A stretch of 64,000 nucleotides of DNA from NCBI GenBank assembly GCA_020137815.1, contig CM035353.1, positions 4,030,001 to 4,094,000 of the forward strand. Direction: 5' to 3'. Of this stretch, positions 834-63,016 are shown piece after piece. Below the pieces are notes generated by a model. The model saw nothing but the letters and a program-made list of their open reading frames with translations, ran no database searches and was not told the origin of the DNA. The position numbers and the translations under genes are program-made. How positions within the stretch are numbered: the stretch's first letter is position 1; each line of letters begins with the position of its first letter. Source of the stretch: Hormiphora californensis (lineage: Eukaryota > Animalia > Ctenophora).

Positions 834-3800
834 ATGAAAACTACTAATATCCAGAAGCTCATCATCACATGTATAGGTAAGATTTATTTTTGTGATAATC
901 TCTATAGTAACAACAGTCAAACCTTTATATATATTAGTTACCGGAACTCTATTTACGGTCAATTGGGGGGGGGGCGACATGTTAATTGTTAATAAATCAC
1001 CTCTTTTTTTCGATTTTGTTAATTAACGTTAATTAACAAAATTAACAAAGTTAACAAATGCTAAAAGACTGTTCTTATTGGTTGATAATACGACTTTAAC
1101 TGGTTTAATTTTATAGTTTAATGACTTAGGGTAAACCGGGGCAATTCGAACAACCGGGGCAATTCGAACAATGTACTGCCCGTCTCTCACCTAGTTAAGC
1201 TATCATAATGACGTCATCCTATCTCCAGAAGAAAACTGCTCGTTCGAGCCTGCCCGTTACCACTAAATAGGCTCTAGATCCGGTTTAAGTTGGTCAATTT
1301 CCGATTTGAAAAAACCAGCTGAAAGCTAATAATATCAGCTTTCAGATGGTATAAAAATTATTTAAATATTCGCATGTTTTCATTCCAAATTCTGGTAAAT
1401 TAAGATTACCGGGGCAATTCGAACAACCGGGGCAATTCGAACAGGGGCAATTTGGTTAACACCCGGGCCAATGATGTGCAGTTCTTTGTACCACGTGATC
1501 ACGCGTGATACCGGGGCAATTCGAACAAGAACGACCAGCGTTGAGCGTGTAGATTGCGTGTAGATTACATTGTTCGAATTGCCCCCACCTCTAACAACAC
1601 CAGGCGGAAATCTTCTTCTGGTGTTGTGAGGACGTTCACGTGACGAAATAAAGCACTCCTATTGGTGTTGTCCGAATTGCCCCGGTACCATTTTTTCCGA
1701 CCAAAATTTTTAAATTAGTTATTTAGTTAAGTAAATGATGGTCCCTAGAGTTGAAATTTATCTTATTTGAAAGATAAAATAATGAACTTTAATCCTATAT
1801 AATTTTTTTCATTGTATCTTTTTTTAAATGGGAGTGAGAACCGATTAAGTAGAAAGTTAACCATTTTGCCCCGGTTTACCCTACCTAACACATACATACC
1901 CAAACAAGGCCTTTTCCGATAACCAAAGTCCGACATACAGATTTTTGGCTCAAAATCGATGAAAATCCAAAAGTTGCAAATATTTCAATTTAGCGTATAA
2001 AATCTCACTTTAACGTATTTTTTTCATTGGTAATAGATTCTTTGAACTTAATAAGATGAAATACAACGTTTCTGTTGGAAAAAGAAATACAATTTTTCCA
2101 AAATCAATTTTTTGGTCAAAGATTGAAAATTTGCTTCGCTACAAATCCTTGTGTTTTTTTAGAAAAATATATTTTTGGGATATTTTTCGTTTTAAGGTAA
2201 ATTAATGAGTCTTATTTAAGTTTTAGGGTTGGAAAATGTGGATTAGGGTCATTTGACTTCAATTGCCGTTTACTTTGGCTAGTTTTTGTTAAAATTTACA
2301 CAGTGGAACAAATCGCTGTAAAAAGGCCGTAGTAGAGGTAGTGGTGGTATGTAAATCGTGCAGAAGGAACAACTTTGCTCGCAGAACAAGTGTTAAATAC
2401 CAAAAATACGTGCTAAAGGGGATTTAGATGGCATAAATGGCACTTGTTAACGTTTGTTAACTTTTTGTTAATTTTGTTAATAAATCACCTGTTTTCTCGA
2501 TGTTAATATTAACAAAGTTAACAAAATTAACATGTCGCCCCCCCCCGGTCAATTTTATTCTAAGAGTTTCTTACACACTTCTAACTCCATTTTCTATTTT
2601 CAGTATTTGCAATCTTCGCCGTTGCAACCTTCTTCTTCTGCGACTATGACGTGGCCTTAACAGTGGAAGTCATGAAAAGTATGGGGGCACCGGGGCTCAT
2701 ATTGGTGGCGTCCATTAGTTGGTGTATCGCTCATACCTGGTATGTCTTCGAACAGCACAAAACGTACAAGGACTTCCCCCAGCCGCCCCGTGCTGACTTC
2801 TTTCAAGGGAACTGGCCACAGATGAAGGCGGCCCAAGATAAAAACACACTCTTTGATCTTTTCGGAGAGTGGGTTGATACGTATGGCGAGACCATTCTCT
2901 TTTGGAGGCAGTCAGCTCCCAAGTACTTCACCTCCGACCCAGACCTGGTCAAGGCCATCCTTACCGAGATTTCCCTCTTTTCAAAGACCCACGCCATCCC
3001 CAACCGGACCCTCTTTGGCCAGAGAATGACGGGTACATCCAGCTTCCTCACGGTCCAAGATGGCGAAGTTTGGGCGATCAAACGAAGGGCCATGTCACCC
3101 TACTTCTCTAAAATCCACATGACTGGAATGTTCGACAAGTGCCACGATTACATCGCACGGGGGCTTGAGAAGCAGTTCTCAGAGGTGGCCTTGGGCAAGA
3201 CACACGTGGACATTGTCGAGTTTTATGGTGAGCTCTATCAGTTCTTCCTGGGTGCTCTTGGCTTTGATCTCGACTGTAACTACGTCTCCGATAACGCCAA
3301 GTTCCACAATGAAGTCATCCAGGGAGTGCTGAAGTGGGCTCCACAGCAGTTTGGTAACACCACAGACGTGCTGAAGATGCGAGTTAGCAAGGATGTAAAC
3401 TCGGTTATCTGCGGTGTAAGCAAACTCCGGACCATCTGTCGTTACATCTTGGATGAGAAGATTAAGGAATACACGGAGAAGGGTCCACAACCGGATGACA
3501 TTTTGCATCATGTTATCACGGCCAACCAGATGTACCTTGAGCACGTCGACACGGAGTTTGACAATCACTATAAGGAGAAACTAATGACATACATGACGGA
3601 CGATGTCTTGACCATCTTCCTTGTCATCGATAACATGGCAAAGACGATGTCTAACTTATTGGTGCGAGTCATGCGGGAACCACGAGTTTACGCAAAAATG
3701 GTGGCGGAGATTCGAGAATCACAGATTGGAGACTTACAAACGATGGACAAAACCCTGCGGTACACTGAGATGGTGATCCTGGAGACTCTGCGACTCCACC

Positions 3801-4207
3801 CAACATTGATGAGGGGTATCCGGGTCACCAAGAACCCGAACACCGAGCTGAACAAGGGCCTCAAAATCAAGGGCAAGGGTATGATCTTCTTTGGACAGCT
3901 CGTCCTCCATCGGTCCACCAAGTACTGGAAGGACCCCTATGAGTTCATCCCAGAGCGATGGGAGACCGGCTCCAAGAACATCACGCCCTTCACATATCTC
4001 CCATTCGTGGCCGGACCTCGAGTGTGCATGGGAAAACATCTGGCTATGTTGAGTATGAAGTTAGCCTTGGCGTATACCTTTAAAAAGCATGACATGAGGC
4101 CGGTACCAGGAGAGGAAAAAGATATGGACTGGGATTATCGGTTTACTATTGTTAGGCCCAGTGCAGGATACAACGCGGTTTTTACGAAGGCCGAAACTGA
4201 AAGTTAA
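834..4207 (+). CDS. Cytochrome P450 (CYP46-like), two exons 834-876 + 2604-4207, about 548 aa, nested in a CKAP5 intron
   Basis: The ORF has WxxxR (WAIKRR), ExxR (ETLR), PERW and the heme motif FVAGPRVCMG, plus CYP46-like segments PPRADFFQGN and LFGQRM. Exon 1 (ATG 834, MKTTNIQKLIITCI) ends G|GTAAG at 876 in phase 1 and joins tttcag|TA at 2604 in frame. Confidence 0.9.
965..2546. mobile_element. Non-autonomous DNA transposon with G-run TIRs (MULE-like) in the P450 intron
   Basis: TIRs GGGGGGGGGGCGACATGTTAATT / AATTAACATGTCGCCCCCCCCC; flanking direct repeat (C)GGTCAATT at 956-964 and 2546-2554 (8-9 bp TSD). Confidence 0.8.
1129..1881. mobile_element. Tc1/mariner(pogo)-like MITE nested inside the MULE-like element
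   Basis: TIR GGGTAAACCGGGGCAA / TTGCCCCGGTTTACCC flanked by TA on both sides; internal CCGGGGCAATTCGAACA repeats; a solo end of the same family occurs at about 36472-36535. Confidence 0.8.
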
Positions 4208-4951: not shown

Positions 4952-6639
4952 CCATTATTCCAACACATCTCCAAGAAATTAAACAATCCTTGGACATCCT
5001 TCTAAAATGGATTTCCCTCCGATTCTTTGATACCAATACCTCCGTACTCCTCGCCTCCCTTGACTGGTAAGTTTCGTACAGAAAAGATGGTGGCGGCAAG
5101 TGCTAAATTGCCACCCTTGTGTTGTACCCCACACTGAATCTGATTTCTCTGTGAGGGTTCGGCAGACCAAATTGCCACCCCTCCCAAAAGTGGGTGTGTA
5201 TCTTTCCAATATTTTATGCCCCTTGTCAGGCTATCAAAATGTTTTCGGGCACTCCTGGACGATGGTTACATCCTGTTAGAACAGGAAGCCAGTGCCTTTA
5301 TGCCATATCTCGTTACAAAACTGGGAGACAGCAAGGAGCCTGTACGGAAGAGTGTCCAGGCGCTCTTCAGTGATATTGTCTTTATTTACCCCGCTTCGAG
5401 GACTTTCCATCATCTTAGTGAAGGTAATTAATTATTAATTAATTAACCATAATGTGAAGGTAATTAATTAACCGTAGTAAGATGAAGTAATTGTTCTATA
5501 CTTACCACTAACAGTCTAAAACGTGCTTATAATATGGGGTGGGGGCACGGCCAAAAAAGCCAAAACCGCCCTATAATCCGGGATTAATCTGGATTTTTTG
5601 GCCTTGCCCCCCCCCCCCTTTGATATTCGTGTGCCAACCCATCGCCCGTATCATTCCGTATTGTAAACATGGATTTATTATTGATTGTATCCTGAATAAA
5701 ACTTTTGTAATTCTCAACAAATCATTACCACCCTGGGTAGGACTAAAAACGAAGAACAGCCGACAAAGAACTGGTGTGTTGGAGCAAGAGACAAAGCTGA
5801 TACATGAACACGGAATTGATGTGTGTCAACCGTCCCCAAAAAAGGCATTTGAGTTTGTAGCGACATTCATCGGTTGGTTGATAAAGTATAGTTCATGCTT
5901 AGTTGATACATATTAAAACCAATTACTAATATTATTTCTGCATGGTGGTCAGTGGTCACTCACAGCAATTTTCAGGTGACAAAGACAACTCGGTAAGAAC
6001 GGCAGCCCTGAATTGTGTGGTAGCAGGGTGGAACTATATCGGAAAAGATATTTATAAGATGGTGGGGAGACTCTCAGACAAGGATATGGGTATGTTGTTA
6101 GACTTTCTCAGACAAGGATATTATATGGGACGTTCTCAGACGTTCTTTCCTCGGATGAGAGAATTAGGGAGGGGGAGATATAGATAGAACTAATTGATAG
6201 CTGATCCTATCATGATCAGTGATCTATATCTAATATAATACCTCTATTAGGAATGCTGGAGGAACGTGTTAAAAGAGCTGGTAAACGTGTCGATACATCT
6301 CCTAAAGCTAAGGTAAGAAACCAGGGCCCGGTCCGCTTGATATAATACCTGATCTTAAATCTTTTTATTTTTCATAATAAACGCTGTGTATCCGAGTTCG
6401 ACACTTTTAACAGTCAAAAGTGTGGTACTCTATGCACTTACGAATTAACCACTAATTGGTCGTGTAAACATGGACGACTCTTCTGCTCTCTCCTATCGCG
6501 AGAGAAGAGATCTCGAGAAGAGCGCGAGAAGAGAGAGCGAGAGATGAGAGAGCTAGGAGAGACGAGAGAAGAGAGAGAGGAGCTAGAGAAGCGCTCTCTT
6601 GTCGCTAGACGAGAGCTTGCCTCTTCTCCGCTCTCTCTC

Positions 6640-6715
<76 letters not shown>

Positions 6716-6992
6716 AATCTCAATATAAGATGAAAACCGCTGACTACACAGAGTCTTAACGTTTTGTAGCATTGGTTGATATGATAATAGCCGCGCCGTC
6801 CTTCTAAATCCGTATTATCTTTCAATATTTCTTTTACGAAATTTTGGAAAAACAGATAATTCTTCTCGGAGAAGAATTATCTGTGCTGTTATTTTGTCAA
6901 AAACACTGATTTCTTGGGTATCTTCCAGGAAAAAACACAGTCTCAGAAATCTGAGGAGGAAGAGGTATTATACAGTGCTGCCTGTATGAGAA

Positions 6993-7060
<68 letters not shown>

Positions 7061-10000
7061 GAGAGAGAGAGAGAGAGAAAAATGATGACTTATAATTGAG
7101 GTAGAAAATAAGGGCATGCCCACATCTTGATATGTATGTCTTTAATCATTTAACTTTCTAATTAAACAGTTTGCCAAGGATGTCACACCTCAAAATTATT
7201 TTGATTGACTGCAACAATTTGTTAGATATTTGTTAGATAATAATATTCTCGTCTTCCTGTTACATGATCACACCTCCCTCTAGGCAGCAGCAGCAGCAGC
7301 AGCAGCAGCGGCTAAACAGGCTGAGCAGCAGGCCCCTACTGCAGCTGTGTCTGTTGACGATATTGACATGGAGCTAGAGCCCGAGGAAGTGGCACGAGAA
7401 CCCTCCCCACCCCCACCACCTCCAAAAAGGAGGGGAGAATTCCAGATGGATTACAAGGTACCGAGACCATGGTCCCAAATTGGGATCAATAAATGTTGGT
7501 TGCGTGAATCCTGTCTGTGTTTCGGGTTTTAGAAGTGTCCAGATTTAGGTGTCCGGATCATATTTCCCCTTCCATGATATATATCCGTTATCTTATAACG
7601 AATCTCCTTCTTATCTCTCATTTCTTCTTTTCTGCTTTCTCTCCTGTCACAAAGTCTGATCGTTCTTCTTTTTCTTGTTCTGATCGTTAGTACTGCTTGG
7701 TTGTTTATTGCCGCTGCCGTTGTATGATAATCTAGACCCCACCCCACTCTTAGATAGGTTACTATTGCTATGTTAATCTTGTTCTGATTATTTTCTAGCC
7801 AGCTCATGAGAGCACCCTCCTTTGTAATCAGTGGCCCGGACCAGGATCCTCCTTCAACACCACCACCTCGGACCTCCAGGCGACATTCCCTAGCAACCAC
7901 AGCAGCCTTCACCAGACAATCCACCCCTCGCCCGCACAAACAGCTCAGTCCAAATGTAGATAGCAATCGGAGACGGTCTGTTTCAGTTGACTTTGTGTAT
8001 CGACCTATCGCTGGGAAGAAGACTCCCGGGAGGAAGGAGGGGAGAAAGAGGACAGATAGTGGTGGTACTAGTAGAAAGAGGACAGAGAGTAGAGGTACTA
8101 GTAGAGAGAGGACAGAGAGTGGTGGTACTGGTAGAGAGAAGACAGAAAGTGGCAGTACTAGTAGAAAGAGGACAGAGAGTGACAGTACTAGTAGAGAGAG
8201 GACAGAGAGTGGCAGTACTAGTATAGAGGTATCTGTTGATAAACCTGTCCCAGAAGTGGCTATAAAGAGAAAGTATCCCGGGGAGTTAGTAAGACAAGAT
8301 ACCTACACGATTTGTAAGGGACGGAGAGAGGTGAGGTCGGAGGAGGATGATATCAAAAGTAGAGAGAGAAGCCCCCGTATCACTGCTAACACTTTACTTC
8401 CGGGCAGTGTAGTAAAAACTCCGAGTCCTCGGCATCTTAGTGCTAGCTGTACAACGCCTAGTCCCCGACATCTAGGTTCTACCGAACGAAGGGCGTCCAT
8501 TACTGTTACAACTCCAAGCCCCCGTACCTCTGAACGAAGGGCGTCTATGAGCTATGACATTACAACTCCAAGCCCCCGTACCTCTGAACGAAGGGCCTCT
8601 ATTGCAGTTACAACTCCAAGCCCACGTACCTCTGAACGAAGGGCGTCCATTACTGTTACTTCTCCAAGCCCCCGTACCTCTGAACGAAGGGCGTCCATTA
8701 CTGTTACAACTCCAAGCCCCCGTACCTCTGAACGAAGGGCCTCTATGAGTTATGTTGTTACAACTCCAAGCCCCCGTACCTCTGAAAGAAGGGCATCCAT
8801 TGCAGTTACAACTCCAAGCCCCCGTACCTCTGAACGAAGGGCCTCTATGAGTTATGACATTACAACACCAAGCCCCCGTACCTCTGAACGAAGGGCCTCT
8901 ATGAGTTATGTTGTTACAACTCCAAGCCCCCGTACCTCTGAACGAAGGGCGTCCATTGCAGTTACAACTCCAAGCCCCCGTACCTCTGAACGAAGGGCGT
9001 CCATTACTGTTACAACTCCAAGCCCCCGTACCTCTGAACGAAGGGCCTCTATGAGTTATGTTGTTACAACTCCAAGCCCCCGTACCTCTGAACGAAGGGC
9101 ATCCATTACTGTTACAACTCCAAGCCCCCGTACCTCTGAACGAAGGGCGTCTATGAGTTATGTTGTTACAACTCCAAGAGAGAGGAGGTGCTCCGTTGGT
9201 AGTTTGACACCCAGTCCTCGGAACGTGAGTGGTGGGAGGAGGGCATCTGTGAGTGGTAGTGTAGGTACCCAGAGGAAGGTTGTATCTCCGTTGGTTGAGA
9301 AAAGTTCAATTGAATCTCGAAAAATATCCGGTGCTGTTGTAAACCGCGAGAAAAGGAAAGTATCGTTCGCGGCTGCTAGGAAGGGTGTAGAGCTCCAGGG
9401 GGACGTATCCAATGAGAGTTATTCTTCAGATGATTCTGATCAGGCCGGCTCCAGGAAAACTCCCTCGTCTGGTGTTCTTAAAATGGTATCCTGTGCCCCA
9501 CCTGATAGTAGTAGGCCATCCCCATCATCTCCTAGAGCGGAGTCTAGAAAGATGCCCGGTACCCCATATCCCCGCGGAGATGGTGAGACGATCCCCGGTA
9601 CCCCATATCCCCGCGGTTCTGAGACGATCCCTGGTACCCCATATCCCCGCGGAGCTGCTGAGACGATCCCCGGTACCCCATATCCCCGCGGAGCTGCTGA
9701 GACGATCCCTGGTACCCCATATCCCCGCGGAGCTGCTGAGACGATCCCCGGTACCCCATATCCCCGCGGAGCTGCTGAGACGATCCCCGGTACCCCATAT
9801 CCCCGCGGAGATGCTGAGACGATCCCCGGTACCCCATATCCCCGCGGAGCTGCTGAGACGATCCCCGGTACCCCATATCCCCGCGGAGCTGCTGAGACGA
9901 TTGGATCACCTAATTCCTTATCCTCGGACTCCTTCACAACTCCACCTCATACAGGGGAAGATAACGTCTCCATCTACTTTTCCACTGCTAAATCATCGAG

Positions 10001-13000
10001 GAGATACAGTGAGGTTGACGTGGAGGAGCTGGCGGAGGTGAAGGTGACCCTGCATTACTCGCAGGGTGGTCGAAAGGAGGCTAGGGCTGAGCAGCAAGAT
10101 GACACCAATATTGAGACAATCGATTGTCAGAACAAGATAGCTGGTGACCTCCACCATGACAGTAATAGTAGTGACATTAGGAGTGATAGTTTCTCCGTTA
10201 AACAGTCTTGTTGCAGTATCTATGAGGAGGTAGAGAACTCTTCTCCCACATCATCATCATCCCCTGACTCATGTCCTGGTGTCAGTGGTAACCTCCTTTC
10301 CTCCCCGCCAACCAGAGATTGTGGACCAAGCTCATCCATGGTTACACCGAGTCACCCAAATACCTCGAAATGGGGCCTCCTCTCGCCCCTCCCTCCACCC
10401 CTCCCTCCACCACCTACACCTGCTACTCCCGAGGATGCCAGAAGAAAGAAGGAACCCAGGACAACAGCTAATTCTGGTACTTTCCAAGCCCTCTCTCATG
10501 GTGGTGCTGAAGAACCGGTTTTCATGCCACTCGAGTTTGAATCACTTGAAATTGGGGCTCCTCCTCCAAGGAAGAGACATGAGGGACCTTTGGCGGCTGA
10601 GATAGAACGACTTGAAAAGTATAGAAGTGATATTTGGAATCACGAACGATTAACTTTGATGCGGATTCGAACTAAGCCTCCCGATGTTTTTAGTGGAATC
10701 GAGGGTGCCATTCAGGAAAGAATCGAGCGAAGGTTTAAGGAGACCATTAACACTGATGCAAGAGATGTATCAGAAATATATAATTTGGAATCAGAAATAT
10801 ATTTTCCACCGTTTGAGGAGGTTTTGGGAGACCACTTGGACAAGTTTAGAGACATCTTGAACACTGCCAATGCCAGGAGGATATCGGAAAAACATTTCCC
10901 ACCTCCCTCTCCTCGACCAACACAACGACTCACAACACCTTCCCGGCTACCCTCAAAGGAGGGTATTTGGAAACTCAACCTCACCCCTGAAGTAGCAGCC
11001 CTCCCTATTTCCTACAATATCAGGTCATCCGATCCTAACTTGTTGCAACCCGAGGAGATATCACCTACCTCACGACGGTTTGATCATGTACGTAGTATGT
11101 CTCTCACAATGTCTCTCACAATGTATGAAAGTGTCCGTTCGCGTTGTCCAAATGTTGATGGTTGTGATTTGTGTTAGGGGTCCGGACATTTTCAAGTTTG
11201 TGTATTGGTGGTGGGACGAAATACAAAACACGGGATCATTTGGTTGTTGTTTGTTTTCCGTGTGAAATAGCAAGCACTATACACGTCTCTCACCGTCCCC
11301 CCTCTCTTGTTTAGAACCTCAAGCCGCTGAATGTTCGACCGTACGAGCGGCTCGGGCAATTGGACATGTCAGGCCTTGACGATTTCGCTGTACCTGAAAC
11401 TAGCCTCAAGGTTAGAACATGATACACGCTGTTTTTAGTTTGATGCCTGGGATTTCTAATATATACATATTTACGATTATAATAAGCAGCCCTACCACCC
11501 CACCTCTCTCCAACCCCCAACCCCACCTCTCTCTCCAACCCCCAACCCCACCTCTCTAACCTCCACCCCCACCTCTCTCCAACCCCCAACCCCACCTCTC
11601 TCCAACCCCCAACCCCACCTCTCTAACCTCCACCCCCACCTCTCTCCAACCCCCAACCCCACCTCTCTAACCTCCACCCCCACCTCTCTCTAAACCCCCA
11701 CCCCACCTCTCTCTAACCCCCAACCCCACCTCTCTCTCTCTAAAACCCACCTACCCAACTTTCTATCCAACCCCCTTCCCATCTCTTTCTAACGCCCCCC
11801 CCACCTCTCTATCTAACCCCCACCTCTCTCTAACCCCCCACCCAACCTTTATATCTAACCCCCCACCCCACCTCTCGAGAGAGCTCTCTCTAACCCCCCA
11901 CCTCTCTCTCTCTAACCCCCACCCCACCTCTCTATCTAACCCCACCTCTCTCTAACCCCCACCCCACCTCTCTCTCTAACACCCGCCCAACTCTCTCTAA
12001 ACCCCCACCTCTCTCTATAACCCCCACCCCACCCCACCTCTCTATCTAACCCCACCTCTCTCTAACCCCCACCCCACCTCTCGCTAACCCCCGCCCAACT
12101 CTCTCTAAACCCCCCCACCCCACCTCTCTAAACCCCCGCCCTCCACAGTACGCTCCCGTTGAACAGAATATGGATGGAATCAATCTAAACGCAGCCGACT
12201 TGGATTCAATTGACAATGAAATAGTCGATATGATCTGTAAGTACCACGTTGGCAGTTACCCATTTCCCAGTCGGATCCCGATTCACTGGGATGCTCGGGA
12301 GGGGGGAATATATATCAGGGTCGGTAAATTGGGTTACGACTGTTATAGCCAATACACTATTTGAATCTCGCATATCTAACTGTCTCACACATGTATTCAG
12401 GTAACATCAGGCACCCCTCTCTGAGTGTCGTGATTGAAACTGTCTCCTGGTTTAACTTACGTCTACAGGATCCAGCGGAGGCACTTACACTTAAGAAGTA
12501 AGAAATGTGTTGCGTCCTAAATACAGCTGTATTATTTCGTTGTGAAGTAATATAAGGAATTATTAAGATTTTACGCCAAGTGGTATGTGTGTTGATGTCA
12601 CGCTAAAGAAGTATTATAGGAATATTAGTGTTGTAGCTCACACTGTATTTTGCCTATGAGGGTTTGGCAGATCATGGAATTATTTTAGTCATGCAATTGT
12701 AGCTCGATCAAATGAAATATTAGCCAGGAATTATAACATGAACTCAAGCAACCCCCCCCCCACGCTAAATAACGGTGCCCTTCTTGCAGCTACGTGAACA
12801 ACATTGTGGGATCTGCGATGACTCAGCTGACCCATTATCCTGCGGGAGTGGATGAAACTGCCCAACAGGAACAGATCTTGTATCGGGCTATTAGCAGCGT
12901 CGTTCTACAACTTATCACCAACATTCAACTTTGTACCGAGGTAACTATTAGTGATAATAGCCAAACTATTCCATTTGGACCAAACCCCGAAAGTGACTTT

Positions 13001-16000
13001 TTAGAAACCTCGACCCCCCCCCCCTCCTCTGGCCTTAAATAATCAATAATTACATAATTATAATACCCCCATCTAGGTAAAAGAGGCGGCAGTGTTCAGG
13101 GTATGTGATACCTTCCTAAAGATCCTGGCAGTCGAAAACGAGCACCACAAGAGTTATAAGCCACTCGAGGATATCTTTAGAGGTATGCGGCAGATCTCCT
13201 AGAAGTTGCGATTTTATATGTTGGAGAATTAGGACTTGTGGTAAATTGATTTATTAAAATCGATGCATACGCAATTAAGAGTTGACCGAATCGTGGCCAT
13301 TGTGGGTGGGGGGTATGCCCAACACGCAACGGTGTATACGCCGGTGTGAACGGTGTAAACATGTAACGTTGCCATCGTGTTTATAAACACAAATAATGTT
13401 ATGAAGTTACAAATAAAGTTGATTTTAACAGGATTGAACGCTATCGTGGTACGACTGATAAGCAACTGCCGAGCAGGCCAGGCCACACCTGCACTAGTCC
13501 ATGTCATGGACACCCGTCTAACAGACACAGGTATTATAGGAGTTAAGAGTGGCGTGCCGTGTTTTCTCACAAAACTTAGTGGATGAACGGGGAGTACCAT
13601 CAGGACCATTGGTACGGTATAGAAAATTTCCAATTCTGTCTCATTTATTAGTTTAAATGATGTAATAATAATCTCACACACACACAAGGTAAAGCGGTTA
13701 AGGGAACTGAAAAAGAGATGGAAATAATTCTGAAATGTCTGTGGAAGGCGATGAAGAAGATTGATGATAATTTCGATCTATCAATTGGGGAACGCCACGC
13801 CATCTTGGAAAGATGTGCCATATTTCTACAAAGGTAAGAACAGAAACAGAATAGGAAAATGGATAATATTCTCTACTACATACCTACAACAATAGTGTCC
13901 AATTCATTTATCATTATGTTTCTGTCCTCTTCAAAGAATTCCAAATAGTTGATTGGTGGTGAGGTTTGACCAAATAGGTGAGGTTTGACCAAATAATATG
14001 AAGTTTCGATTCAATATCGGATGTAACGGCAGATGGTTAATTACGATTTTAAGTGTTGCGTGAGACCAATTTACAGTATATTATATGTTCCAACTCAGGT
14101 TACCCAGTCCCATTTGGAAGGATGGTGGAGATAATGATAAGCCATACCGGACAATAAAAACTCTGCTTCACAAGCTGTGCCTTAAAAATGGAGCCGAGGT
14201 ATAAATAGTTTAGTACCAGGAACCGACCGAATCAGGAAATACTGGTCCCTGATTGGCTGATAACCAGTCACGTGATCTAAATAACGAGTTCTGATTGGCT
14301 GTTTACTTGTTTCGGTCGGTTCCTGTTTAGTACTATGTATATTCTTTGGGTCCTATAAGAGTCTTGTCAATTGAGGTCACGAGAAATCCCACGATAGGCC
14401 GGGCTATATATATTGCTTTTGTATCTGTGTTTTAATTTTGAGGCTGATCTTTCCAAACTCTCATTAGCCATATTCCTTGAAGCTCCAGTTAACCATGTAT
14501 TCCCGTAGGTGCTACAAGATCTGCAGTGTCTACGGGTGGAGCATGCGAACATCCTGAAACCCATAGTTGACTCAATTCTTACAATTCTTGGTATCGCAAC
14601 CACCAAAGACTCTCAAATATTTGGTGGTAAGAAATATATTACTGCACTTCCGATTTATTTGACTGACAACTTGGAACTAGTCAATCAGTTTCGCAAAACT
14701 ATTACAATAAATGGGTTACTTTCAGGCAACGTGGAGCCGAATGGGGAACAGAAAACTCAGCTTGAAGGAATATTCGACAAGCTCAAATGCAAAGATCTTA
14801 TCCGGTAAAATTAGCAATTAATTAACAAATTATTAATTACAACTTTTGTTAAAAATCACACTGGACTCTTGAGATATAACCCTGAACCCCCATGAAACTG
14901 GGTTAGAACTTGAATCTTGAATCTAACAAGGATTTCTACAGGTCCGCACTGGATGATCTGTATTATTTCATTAAAGGAAACCCTTCTGTTAATGTTAACA
15001 CGCACCTGGACACCCTCCAACCCGTCAAAAAGAGTTAGTTAATTAATTAATGAATAATAGGTATATCAATATATCCATCATTTCTGGATATCAAAAACTG
15101 TATGACTCCGTATGACTGGTCATTAACGTCTGATCTAATCAGTTAAATTGTAATATTTCTCTAGATTTGGTTGAAAAGATTCTCGCTGACTGTGCCAATA
15201 AGGATCCCTCGTGGTGTGTACAAAGACGAAAACTCAACTGTCCTTCTGGAGAGTGAGGGACTAAGCGAATTAGAGGTAAGCTACAATCACACTAGAGTGA
15301 TCAGGGACTAAGCGAATTAGAGGTAAGCTACAATCACACTAGAGTGATCAGGGACTAAGCGAATTAGAGGTAAGCTACAATCACACTAGAGTGATCAGGG
15401 ACTAAGCGAATTAGAGGTAAGCTACAATCACACTAGAGTGATCAGGGATTAAGCGAATTAGAGGTAAGCTACGATCACACTAGAGTGATCAGGGACTAAG
15501 CGAATTAGAGGTAAGCTACAATCACACTAGACTGATCAGGGATTAAGCGAATTAGAGGTAAGCTACAATCGCACTAGAGTGATCAGGGACTAAGCGAATT
15601 AGAGGTAAGCTACAATCACACTAGACTGATCAGGGACTAAGCGAATTAGAGGTAAGCTACAATCGCACTAGAGTGATCAGGGACTAAGCGAATTAGAGGT
15701 AAGCTACGATCACACTAGAGTGATCAGGGATTAAGCGAATTAGAGGTAAGCTACAATCGCACTAGAGTGATCAGGGACTAAGCGAATTAGAGGTAAGCTA
15801 CAATCACACTAGACTGATCAGGGACTAAGCGAATTAGAGGTAAGCTACAATCGCACTAGAGTGATCAGGGACTAAGCGAATTAGAGGTAAGCTACGATCA
15901 CACTAGAGTGATCAGGGATTAAGCGAATTAGAGGTAAGCTACAATCACACTAGAGTGATCAGGGTACTAAGCGAATTAGAGGTAAGCTACAATCACACTA

Positions 16001-17855
16001 GACTGATCAGGGACTAAGCGAATTAGAGGTAAGCTACAATCACACTAGAGTGATCAGGGACTAAGCGAATTAGAGGTAAGCTACAATCACACTAGAGTGA
16101 TCAGGGACTAAGCGAATTAGAGGTAAGCTACAATCACACTAGACTGATCAGGGACTAAGCGAATTAGAGGTAAGCTACAATCACACTAGAGTGATCAGGG
16201 ACTAAGCGAATTAGAGGTAAGCTACAATCACACTAGAGTGATCAGGGACTAAGCGAATTAGAGGTAAGCTACAATCACACTAGAGTGATCAGGGACTAAG
16301 CGAATTAGAGGTAAGCTACAATCACACTAGAGTGATCAGGGACTAAGCGAATTAGAGGTAAGCTACAATCACACTAGAGTGATCAGGGACTAAGCGAATT
16401 AGAGGTAAGCTACAATCACACTAGACTGATCAGGGACTAAGCGAATTAGAGGTAAGCTACAATCACACTAGAGTGATCAGGGACTAAGCGAATTAGAGGT
16501 AAGCTACAATCACACTAGAGTGATCAGGGACTAAGCGAATTAGAGGTAAGCTACGATCACACTAGAGTGATCAGGGACTAAGCGAATTAGAGGTAAGCTA
16601 CAATCACACTAGAGTGATCAGGGTACTAAGCGAATTAGAGGTAAGCTACAATCACACTAGACTGATCAGGGATTAAGCGAATTAGAGGTAAGCTACAATC
16701 ACACTAGAGTGATCAGGGACTAAGCGAATTAGAGGTAAGCTACAATCACACTAGAGTGATCAGGGACTAAGCGAATTAGAGGTAAGCTACAATCACACTA
16801 GAGTGATCAGGGATTAAGCGAATTAGAGGTAAGCTACAATCACACTAGAGTGATCAGGGACTAAGCGAATTAGAGGTAAGCTACAATCACACTAGAGTGA
16901 TCAGGGACTAAGCGAATTAGAGGTAAGCTACAATCACACTAGAGTGATCAGGGATTAAGCGAATTAGAGGTAAGCTACAATCACACTAGAGTGATCAGGG
17001 ATTAAGCGACATTCCTGTCGCGGCGCCAGACCCCCTAAATTACCTTGGTGACATATAGACACCTGGCGCGACCCCCGCTCAATCTTGGTCGCGCACGGTG
17101 TCTATGTCACCAATAAATTACCCTCTCTCTGAGTCAGGGGACATTTTGTTACCATTTTGCTGCAAGCTCAACATTATATCTTGTTGAGACTCAACAAATT
17201 ATATCAGGACCTATATTCCCATATATTCGGGTCAATAATACCATATATGTTCAGCAGGGTACAGATAGACGTCACGAGAGTGCAAGAGCAAGGCCCCTCT
17301 CTGAGCTAGTGAGCGAAACCAAGATATTCTGCGTCGTCATAAAAGGCAGTTTCCAGATGGGGACAGCGCTGATGTTGATCATCTGTTAAACTCTTATCCA
17401 AAGGTAAGATATATATCATATCTCTGTAAGGGTGGTAGCTGAAGTTTAGGAGCCCCCACTGGGCCGGAGGTAATATAACGAGATAGTTGACGTATTATAG
17501 TTGATAAATTCTCCTAGTATACTGTATATATATATTCTCACCCGGTCCTCAACAGATGAAGTCGAAGAATGAGAAGGAAAATCAGAAGCGTTCCAATCTG
17601 CCAACTTCCTCCATACCCCGCTCATCGGCATCCCCTACTCGATCCCCAACCAGGTATTTTGTTTTCTTCTTCTGTGGGGTTGATATAATTGCGTGCGAAA
17701 ACCGTGATCGGAGCATTGACAGTTAGGACACACACGTAAACTCTTCCTCTCCCTTTTTAGATCTGGTTCGGGAATACCCTCTCGCTCCATGGATGATTTG
17801 AAGAAGCGCCTGGAAGATGATAAAGAAACGGTCCCACATGATGCATCAAACGTGA
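4952..17855 (+). CDS. CKAP5: CKAP5 / ch-TOG / XMAP215 microtubule polymerase, 3' part (TOG5 to C-terminus); the 5' part lies upstream of the window
   Basis: Phase-consistent GT-AG exons at 4952-5066, 5230-5423, 5741-5872, 5976-6089, 6251-6312, 7284-7457, 11315-11410, 12149-12236, 12401-12497, 12790-12940, 13077-13182, 13432-13530, 13689-13833, 14099-14198, about 14509-14626, 14726-14803, 14942-15031, 15165-15275, about 17257-17403, 17557-17652 and 17761 onward. Translations LDILLKWISLRFFDTNTSVL, KTKNSRQR, DKDNSVRTAALN, KCLWK, RTIKTLLHKLC and DDLKKRLE match ch-TOG. The terminal exons contain apparent indels. Confidence 0.93.
5536..5618. mobile_element. Small G-run-TIR MITE in a CKAP5 intron
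   Basis: Inverted ends GGGGTGGGGGCACGGCCAAAAAA ... TTTTTTGGCCTTGCCCCCCCCCC. Confidence 0.5.
7803..11087 (+). CDS. Putative giant cassette exon of CKAP5 (1,095 codons, low complexity, S/T/P/R-rich). Alternative: a nested single-exon gene 7806-11177
   Basis: Uninterrupted 1123-aa ORF within the CKAP5 intron 7458-11314. Acceptor tttctagccag|CTC ATG (phase 0) and donor GAT CAT|GTACGT at 11087 (phase 0) match the phase-0 flanking exons. Confidence 0.65.
8480..9175 (+). repeat. Coding tandem repeat, 14 x (T)TPSPRTSERRAS(ITV/IAV/MSYVV/MSYDI), 48/54-bp units
   Basis: Visible in the DNA and the translation; unit lengths are multiples of 3. Confidence 0.9.
9552..9900 (+). repeat. Coding tandem repeat, 9 x PGTPYPRG(AA)ETI, mostly 39-bp units
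   Basis: Visible in the DNA and the translation. Confidence 0.9.
11490..12145 (+). repeat. C-rich minisatellite (CCCCACCTCTCTCTAACCCC) running up to a CKAP5 acceptor
   Basis: Degenerate about 23-bp units ending at ctccacag|12149. Confidence 0.85.
14217..14325. mobile_element. 109-bp hAT-type MITE (CAGGAACCGACCGAA TIR)
   Basis: Perfect 8-bp TSD TTTAGTAC; TIR CAGGAACCGACCGAA / TTCGGTCGGTTCCTG. Confidence 0.9.
15257..17009 (+). repeat. 47-bp tandem satellite (about 37 copies) containing the CKAP5 exon end and splice donor
   Basis: Unit GGGACTAAGCGAATTAGAG|GTAAGCTACAATCACACTAGAGTGATCA, highly homogeneous. Confidence 0.95.
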
Positions 17856-17899
17856 TCAAAGGAGGATATACTATCACAATTTTACAAATTTTACTGGGA

Positions 17900-21709: not shown

Positions 21710-63016
<41,307 letters not shown>

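Follow-up and report, generated by a model that had tools for sequence, protein, structure and literature searches.

A giant open frame within the CKAP5 gene of the ctenophore Hormiphora californensis: a likely optional exon and candidate alternative first exon

Introduction

Does a stop-free frame of more than a thousand codons, lying on the sense strand of a CKAP5 intron, belong to that gene, and if so, how is it joined to it? XMAP215 proteins are usually viewed as an invariable string of TOG domains that differ only in minor ways, such as the small developmental insert variants of Xenopus. Literature searches turned up neither a giant isoform nor one lacking TOG1-5 for the XMAP215 family; both are candidates here. 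In Hormiphora californensis, the stop-to-stop frame (7788-11177 on the plus strand, 1,129 aa) lies between CKAP5 exons 7284-7457 and 11315-11410 of the window, the window being the whole 64,000-nt stretch of DNA that was analysed. A preliminary description of this DNA had proposed a giant cassette exon creating an enlarged isoform; the coding behaviour of the frame, the donor at 11087 and a skipping form in a relative speak for this proposal, yet a trans-spliced first exon accounts no less well for the features at the 5′ end.

Results

The host gene

The host gene is a member of the XMAP215/Dis1/ch-TOG (CKAP5) family. The protein P0008, encoded by an intronless 2,239-nt contig (L001) of another organism, matches the window exons in the same order (tblastn). 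Against PDB chains, P0008 shows an XMAP215-type TOG domain, matching TOG5 of Xenopus CKAP5-A (E=1e-37), fly Msps (3e-29) and worm ZYG-9 (6e-18), while its matches to CLASP reach E=2e-5 or weaker. Four of the five TOG5 exons match P0008 with 68-81% identity (tblastn), and a long C-terminal region follows; the TOG1-4 array is likely located before window position 1. The C-terminal frame is open as far as 15033, with apparent frame breaks in the last four exons. No PDB or Pfam match names TOG6 or the four-helix bundle in the C-terminal exons, and both names were assigned from position and from PMC13376574. The other modelled CKAP5 exons are all 62-194 nt long (n=21), and the other modelled introns (n=19) contain 21-38% T and 21-39% A. 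Coordinates of all features are collected in Table 1.

Table 1. Features of the CKAP5 locus and of the giant open frame (window positions)
Feature	Position	Strand	Remarks
Five CKAP5 exons, most of TOG5	4952-5066, 5230-5423, 5741-5872, 5976-6089, 6251-6312	+	Frame open through all five
CKAP5 linker exon upstream of giant exon	7284..7457	+	Phase 0-0
T-rich stretch	7458..7802	+	345 nt, T 41%, A 19%; intron if cassette, outron-like if first exon
Two AGs four bases apart and ATG at 7806	7797..7808	+	A start at 7803 keeps the frame, one at 7799 does not
Giant exon (predicted)	7803..11087	+	3,285 nt, 1,095 codons without stop, 119.5 kDa, pI 10
Repeat A	8043..8223	+	30-nt unit, ~6 copies
Repeat B	8484..9178	+	48/54-nt units, ~14 copies
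Repeat C	9551..9901	+	39-nt unit (one 36), ~9 copies
Second conserved block	10581..10751	+	Partly predicted helical, common to P0004
Last 45 codons of giant exon	10953..11087	+	Strongly conserved
Donor GTACGT (likely)	11088..11093	+	Phase 0; homologue identity stops here
Read-through past donor into likely intron	11088..11177	+	29 codons and TAG, unconserved
CKAP5 exon downstream of giant exon	11315..11410	+	Starts phase 0; acceptor rank 3/295 AG; likely donor partner
CKAP5 C-terminal exons (likely TOG6, four-helix bundle, tail)	12149..17860	+	tblastn of P0008

Coding nature and composition of the frame

The 1,123-codon stop-free ORF of the preliminary description was recovered and runs from ATG 7806 through TAG 11175-77. 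As far as the DNA can tell, this frame is likely coding, because every repeat unit has a length divisible by three and its homologues share the last residues. All 26 of the 26 repeat spacings are divisible by three, and the differences among repeat copies comprise 10 synonymous versus 8 non-synonymous ones (expected share ~0.27, p ~0.01), with Repeat A by itself showing no synonymous excess (2 vs 6). The ORF is beyond chance: even the last 394 codons, which are non-repetitive, would be free of stops with a probability of only ~4e-9. Among the plus-strand frames, the sense frame scores best on codon use in five of five segments; an antisense frame outscores it in three of the five.

The predicted protein is rich in Ser, Pro, Arg and Thr (S+E 22.3%, S/E/T/D/K/P 52.1%, Arg 11.6%), is basic in its first half (residues 1-500 carry a net +53) and is likely mostly disordered; a structure model of the last 159 aa was of low confidence (pLDDT 53). 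Tandem repeats make up about one third of the frame, and every unit of Repeat B carries RRxS plus tandem T/S-P motifs. The kinase and phosphatase motifs of the protein are pattern matches only. No Pfam family, those of mobile elements included, scored above cut-off against the protein, and the exon has neither a terminal repeat of at least 10 nt nor a second copy within the window.

Homologues and the donor at 11087

The last 45 residues are identical at 42 of 45 positions with P0003 and at 35 of 45 with P0004-P0007, all five homologues lying on short contigs (568-1,310 nt) on which a location in a CKAP5 intron would not be visible. Directly past the donor all five have Val (a GTN codon) followed by Arg or Cys, and identity beyond that Val is 3/25, 0/28, 0/28, 1/26 and 1/2. 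P0003 retains four of the first five residues beyond the donor, P0007 stops three residues past it, and P0004 and P0006, members of one 90% cluster, have tails that translate the same DNA in two different frames for 17 codons, a length that none of 300 shuffles equalled (best 10). When read in phase 0, the modelled CKAP5 introns also begin with Val and then Arg, Ser or Cys in 12 of 20 cases. The donor is therefore likely real, since identity collapses directly after it and the homologue tails are mutually frameshifted, as expected of an intron. We strongly infer, from the sequences compared, that this donor is used, and the exon at 11315 is strongly indicated as its partner. The duplication reported past the donor was found as a 12-nt duplication at 11097-11124.

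The acceptor at 7803 and the donor are both phase 0, as are the end of exon 7284-7457 and the start of exon 11315-11410; inclusion would thus keep the frame, as had been proposed. No motif-bearing protein of 358-2,000 aa was found; among proteins of 98-2,000 aa the motif picked out P0003 and P0004 alone, and so did a search of cluster representatives with no length window. None of the 86 pattern matches to the conserved end in metagenome contigs and none of the 148 in viral contigs is a relative, and 20-aa matches in Methanothrix (2 of 62 prokaryote-genome matches) were rejected as chance. In the ESM Atlas, the best feature score for P0004 was 0.86, without a family.

Splice-site strength and optional use

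Splice sites were scored with a matrix built from this window's own sites (21 donors, 22 acceptors). The donor ranks 17th of 241 GTs and is outscored by 17 of the 21 training donors; the acceptor at 7803 ranks 43rd of 295 AGs and is outscored by 18 of the 22 training acceptors. From DNA alone, neither site of the giant exon is beyond chance. In L001 the equivalents of 7284-7457 and 11315-11410 are joined directly, and the giant exon is likely optional because this spliced cDNA of a relative skips it. One RNA run, compared with 7200-15250, gave three pieces that were less than 90% alike, contained no joints and lay on neither the giant nor the flanking exons, which is uninformative on expression.

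The 5′ end

The neighbouring out-of-frame AG outscores that of 7803 (2.1 vs 0.9), which would be costly for a cassette exon but harmless for trans-splicing. Joins to the AGs at 7754, 7758 and 7799 were rejected for their early stops. ATG 7806 sits 3 nt past the acceptor, the next Met coming only at residue 249, and this position counts for little by itself, since a Met also falls within the first two codons of 2 of the 21 internal exons of CKAP5. An intronless transporter gene of the same window has its ATG 5 nt past a similar acceptor. In the 30 nt upstream, the giant exon has 16-17 T, compared with 4-14 at CKAP5 cis acceptors (n=21), 14 at a cis acceptor of the P450 gene and 16 at the transporter, a comparison chosen post hoc and including only two putative trans acceptors, with 13 and 16 T. 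The window contains no match to a 17-nt piece of the published leader. A join from the upstream exon into the acceptor at 7803 would preserve the reading frame, something that a cassette needs and a first exon does not. The ATG, the T-rich upstream sequence and the competing AG hint that the giant exon may start at 7803 as a first exon.

Discussion

By whichever route, the giant frame is probably an exon of CKAP5 that is spliced to its C-terminal exons. For its upstream side, our leading explanation, which we put forward tentatively, is an alternative first exon begun by spliced-leader trans-splicing, giving an isoform without TOG1-5. It is slightly favoured over a cassette exon because of the ATG 3 nt past the acceptor, the T-rich upstream sequence and the same-strand nested genes. 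The message would start at the acceptor just before ATG 7806, by a spliced leader or an internal promoter, and the donor at 11087 would be spliced onto the CKAP5 C-terminal exons. The product would have about 1,600 aa, in which 1,094 largely disordered residues replace TOG1-5 and are followed by the TOG6/four-helix-bundle/tail region. Having no TOG1-5, such a short isoform would be no polymerase, and it would retain the part that binds gamma-tubulin complexes and TACC in vertebrates. TOG6 binds gamma-tubulin and not alpha/beta-tubulin (PMC13376574), and TACC3 has its site on the C-terminal side of TOG6 (PMC11921806). Plausibly, the basic residues 1-500 would grip the acidic microtubule surface and phosphorylation of the repeats would switch this grip off; perhaps the short isoform serves in some cell type at microtubule-organising sites, as an anchor or a competitor controlled by phosphorylation. 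Any such function is conjectural.

Trans-splicing is frequent in this animal: in Hormiphora, at least 56% of long reads carry the leader, and parallel nested genes are common (PMC8527503). In Schistosoma, internal sites account for 43% of leader acceptors and are U-richer than cis acceptors (PMC5832876). Against a first exon, only 345 nt lie upstream, leaving scant room for a promoter, the acceptor matches the frame of the upstream exon, and the test of T-richness was post hoc.

The possible, somewhat less probable alternative is the giant cassette exon, joined 7457 to 7803 and 11087 to 11315 and inserting 1,095 residues between TOG5 and TOG6. This would give a polymerase with all its domains, in which a long phospho-regulated spacer separates the TOG1-5 array from the end binding gamma-TuRC and TACC. 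Both sites are in phase 0 and inclusion brings no stop, the homologues support the donor and a relative has the skip form, the flanking introns (345 and 227 nt) are ordinary for CKAP5, weak splice sites suit a regulated exon, and the amino-acid composition approaches that of the giant exons of ankyrins (S+E 22%, the six residues 52%). Regulated cassette exons may also show U-rich upstream introns. However, the acceptor is weak with a better out-of-frame AG four bases upstream, an ATG stands right past it behind a T-rich sequence like that of a nested-gene start, and the 21 other modelled exons are only 62-194 nt. The enlarged isoform depends on the upstream join 7457-7803. That the exon is used both ways, trans-spliced into a polymerase-less anchor and cis-spliced into a giant polymerase of ~3,000 aa, is unlikely.

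It is improbable that the frame ends at its own stop at 11177, either as a single-exon nested gene (1,123 aa) or as an alternative last exon with intronic polyadenylation. The frame is complete from ATG to stop, P0003 remains similar a few residues beyond the donor, and the same-strand P450 and transporter genes suggest that nesting is usual here. As previously stated, no AATAAA precedes the next exon (none in 11080-11320), but the variant AATACA at 11220, followed by a G/T-rich stretch, had been overlooked. Yet in two other lineages conservation halts precisely where a GT stands whose phase agrees with that of the following CKAP5 exon, and the tails within one homologue cluster are frameshifted or cut early. 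A wholly independent nested gene, the case that would have overturned the earlier proposal, is thus unlikely, because the ORF behaves as coding, the homologues support the donor and a relative has the skip form.

We consider very improbable a mutually exclusive exon, in which 6251-6312 is joined to 7803 and the giant exon replaces 7284-7457. Exon 6251-6312 also ends in phase 0, the join has no stop, and a proline run and a faintly similar motif lie near the ends of both the giant exon and 7284-7457; but the likeness of the motif is borderline or not significant (318 and 225 of 5,000 shuffles) and is not the best match over the whole exon. That the frame is foreign to the host, whether as a chance product of repeats, as a mobile element or as an artefact of the assembly, is hardly credible: its repeat-rich third, the frame breaks in the last CKAP5 exons and the antisense codon scores would allow it, but against it stand protein-level conservation, unique segments without stops, the top plus-strand codon score in every segment, and the lack of mobile-element families, terminal repeats and a second window copy.

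Among known systems, big tau is a giant-exon isoform. Bilaterian giant ankyrins resemble the CKAP5 frame in having a single long, low-complexity open exon with repeat arrays in a cytoskeletal gene, short and long forms, and fast divergence; they differ in the host, in length (mean 8.1 kb vs 3.3 kb) and in being Ser/Glu-led where the CKAP5 exon is Arg-rich and basic (PMC5135030). The same paper gives S+E ~25% and S/E/T/D/K/P >55% for giant-ankyrin exons; the CKAP5 exon comes near to, but falls below, these values. A further difference is that the upstream join in CKAP5 is only predicted. Ankyrins are described there as absent from comb jellies (PMC5135030), so any likeness would be convergent.

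If dual use is true, the XMAP215 family would gain its first giant isoform as well as its first one without TOG1-5, and the locus would represent a giant-exon cytoskeletal strategy independent of bilaterian ankyrins, in a lineage reported to be without ankyrins. An addition of 120 kDa, or a disordered, phospho-regulated arm in place of the polymerase half, would uncouple plus-end growth from the binding of nucleating complexes, making the isoform a candidate builder of unusual microtubule arrays in an early-branching animal. If the first-exon reading is true, trans-splicing would make a new protein architecture out of an old gene. In Schistosoma mansoni and in C. elegans sma-9, a leader added at an intronic U-rich acceptor gives an N-terminally shortened isoform, as proposed here (PMC5832876; PMC2904332), but there a standard exon is reused, whereas the internal start in CKAP5 would bring its own 3.3-kb coding exon, missing from the standard form.

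Parallel nested genes of pleurobrachiids likewise consist of an ORF on the strand of the host whose intron contains it, with an acceptor immediately ahead of the ATG (PMC8527503), and the window contains two likely cases. In contrast to these, the giant ORF of CKAP5 has a conserved donor that likely leads back to host exons, and hence would not be self-contained. The P450 and transporter genes of this window are likely nested on the same strand, and nesting is likely usual in it.

A conserved, probably coding frame within CKAP5

The giant exon, lying in an intron of CKAP5 (ch-TOG/XMAP215), is likely a real, conserved and optional exon of this gene. As the preliminary description held, its + strand frame is free of stops (7788-11177), and exons 7284-7457 and 11315-11410 are both in phase 0 at the ends facing it; splicing in at AG 7803 and out at GT 11088 leaves the reading frame of the CKAP5 exons intact. 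Joining the upstream exon to AG 7754, 7758 or 7799 instead runs into early stops.

Features of the giant exon and of the remaining window
Feature	Position	Strand	Details
Giant exon	7803-11087	+	1,095 residues
Repeats A, B, C	8043-8223, 8484-9178, 9551-9901		tandem arrays within the giant exon
Cytochrome P450 gene, two exons	789-876, 2604-4207	+	ATG 834, 549 aa; Pfam p450 E=4e-44
MFS/sugar-transporter gene, intronless	31902-33422	-	ATG 5 nt behind T-rich acceptor
Alpha carbonic anhydrase coding exon	54550-55233	+	Pfam E=7e-27
47-nt unit array	15256-17009		37 copies, 97% identity
Dispersed 106-nt element	14217-14322 and six other places		7 near-full copies in the window, 91-98% alike

The three repeat arrays make up about one third of the frame, with spacings of 30 nt (5/5), 48 or 54 nt (13/13) and 39 or 36 nt (8/8); in intronic arrays close by the periods are 22-23 and 47, and in two arrays past the CKAP5 end they are 30 and 33. 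Distinct codon variants among repeat copies are synonymous in 10 cases and non-synonymous in 8, against an expected synonymous share of ~0.27 (p ~0.01), with no synonymous excess in repeat A alone. The unique last 394 codons would lack a stop by chance with P ~4e-9. Among 1.84 billion representatives, the last 226 residues matched two proteins, P0003 (E=7e-35) and P0004 (4e-24, cluster of 4 members), and a second block, at about residues 927-983, is common to the giant exon and P0004. These homologues are unnamed proteins on ENA contigs of 568-1,310 nt, presumably placed in a CKAP5 intron as well. A Pfam search of the giant exon gave no family above cut-off.

The form without the giant exon

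Searching with one TOG5 exon retrieved a 712-aa protein of a relative (P0008), encoded without introns on a 2,239-nt contig (L001). Among solved structures, its matches to the TOG5 chains of Xenopus CKAP5-A (E=1e-37), of Msps and of ZYG-9 are far stronger than those to CLASP. It follows the window exon by exon from 5300 to 17815; our exon model, open from 4952 to 15033 (653 aa), is 52% identical to it. On L001 the equivalents of exons 7284-7457 and 11315 are joined directly; therefore the skip form exists in a relative, which makes the optional inclusion proposed earlier likely. The last four modelled exons (15165-17403, +) carry apparent frame breaks, due to assembly indels or wrong exon boundaries, and the matching part of P0008 also aligns poorly. 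The modelled inclusion and first-exon products are consequently too short, and the length of the part following the giant exon (~520 aa) was taken from P0008. Separately, 12403-12456 is matched by an 863-nt contig (record 1 of run X1) whose loose ends translate to adjacent CKAP5 exon sequences, which marks it as spliced cDNA from a close relative.

The 3' end: probable donor at 11087

From DNA alone this donor is mediocre (rank 17 of 241 GT); the homologues decide in its favour and make it well supported at sequence level. The 45 residues before it are identical at 42 positions in P0003 and at 35 in P0004-P0007, and in all five homologues the conserved end is directly followed by Val and then Arg or Cys; 12 of 20 modelled CKAP5 introns, read in phase 0, begin with Val and Arg, Ser or Cys. 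Beyond Val, identity falls to 3/25, 0/28, 0/28, 1/26 and 1/2. Over 17 codons the tails of P0004 and P0006 correspond to one DNA read in two frames (none of 300 shuffles reaches this; best 10), and P0007 stops three residues past the conserved end. Such tails fit an intron, because frameshifts differ inside one cluster, as intron sequence allows. Against this, 4 of the 5 residues right after the donor are retained in P0003, although a close relative's donor sequence would give the same. The closest downstream partner, exon 11315, has an in-phase acceptor ranking 3 of 295.

The 5' end: first exon or cassette

Tentatively, we read the giant exon as an alternative first exon, which would receive a spliced leader by trans-splicing and give an isoform lacking TOG1-5. 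An ATG (7806) lies 3 nt behind acceptor 7803, and the next Met comes only at residue 249; however, an early Met also begins 2 of 21 internal CKAP5 exons. An out-of-frame AG four bases upstream of AG 7803 outscores it (2.1 vs 0.9). The preceding 30 nt hold 16-17 T, vs 4-14 at 21 CKAP5 cis acceptors, in a post hoc test, and the 345-nt stretch upstream exceeds every other modelled CKAP5 intron in T skew. Weak singly, these clues jointly lean modestly toward the first exon. The leader was reported on at least 56% of Hormiphora long reads (PMC8527503); in Schistosoma, trans-spliced acceptors are described as U-richer and internal cis acceptors as making up 43% of leader acceptors (PMC5832876).

A giant cassette exon, spliced on both sides as first proposed, is somewhat less likely; in its favour, AG 7803 continues the frame of the exon before it, and the flanking introns are ordinary in size. 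Of that proposal, the likely optional exon and its donor are supported, while the start leans to a first exon; both uses may occur.

Past the donor the frame stays open for 29 codons, up to a TAG (11175-77), and the AATAAA said to be missing before the next exon is indeed absent, but a variant AATACA lies at 11220; with conservation ending at the donor, a stand-alone gene or alternative last exon is unlikely. That TAG might double as an acceptor, with 30 same-frame open codons after it (11178-11270, +), likely by chance. A mutually exclusive exon is very improbable, and an artefactual frame scarcely credible.

Product and possible function

The segment encoded by the giant exon (119.5 kDa, pI 10) has a net charge of +53 over residues 1-500 and is acidic or neutral past residue 600. 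R[RK]x[ST] occurs 25 times in it and [ST]P 64 times; further motifs are of RVxF type (residue 518), PxIxIT-like (residue 5) and SxLP (1047), the last present in P0003 and absent from P0004. We take these patterns to be putative PKA, proline-directed kinase, PP1, calcineurin and EB1 sites. The CKAP5 tail itself carries several Sx[IL]P motifs (17556-17815, +; P0008 residues 656-703), presumably a sign that it may bind EB1 directly.

Xenopus TOG6 is reported to bind gamma-tubulin and gamma-TuRC rather than alpha/beta-tubulin, its deletion lowering nucleation with growth rate unchanged (PMC13376574), and the TACC3 site is C-terminal to TOG6 (PMC11921806). A first-exon isoform would thus retain the end that binds the nucleator and TACC and lack the polymerase; the basic arm that it gains could be freed from microtubules by phosphorylation. 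A cassette isoform would instead carry a long regulated spacer separating the two CKAP5 halves.

Giant ankyrin exons are described as 8.1 kb on average, Ser/Glu-led and detected only in bilaterians, with ankyrins not found in comb jellies (PMC5135030). The CKAP5 giant exon would work alike only if its upstream join is used and, being shorter, basic and in another gene, is not of their family. The literature searched, comprising few subscription papers and no supplements, yielded no giant or TOG1-5-less XMAP215 isoform, and comb-jelly annotation could already include one.

Likely nested genes, and repeats

Nested genes running parallel to the host are reported to be many in Hormiphora (PMC8527503). 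The window likely holds two: the P450 gene, likely nested in a CKAP5 intron since it shares the strand and lies directly upstream of a mid-TOG5 exon, and the transporter gene, apparently inside a putative same-strand gene with RCC1 repeats that we assume to be HERC-like. The 47-nt unit includes an exon end and donor, so that the donor at 15275 is repeated throughout the intron. The 106-nt element, which in translated form is typical of Pleurobrachia gene models and, with the gene layout, suggests a comb jelly as the preliminary description assumed, is also matched by one contig of run X1.
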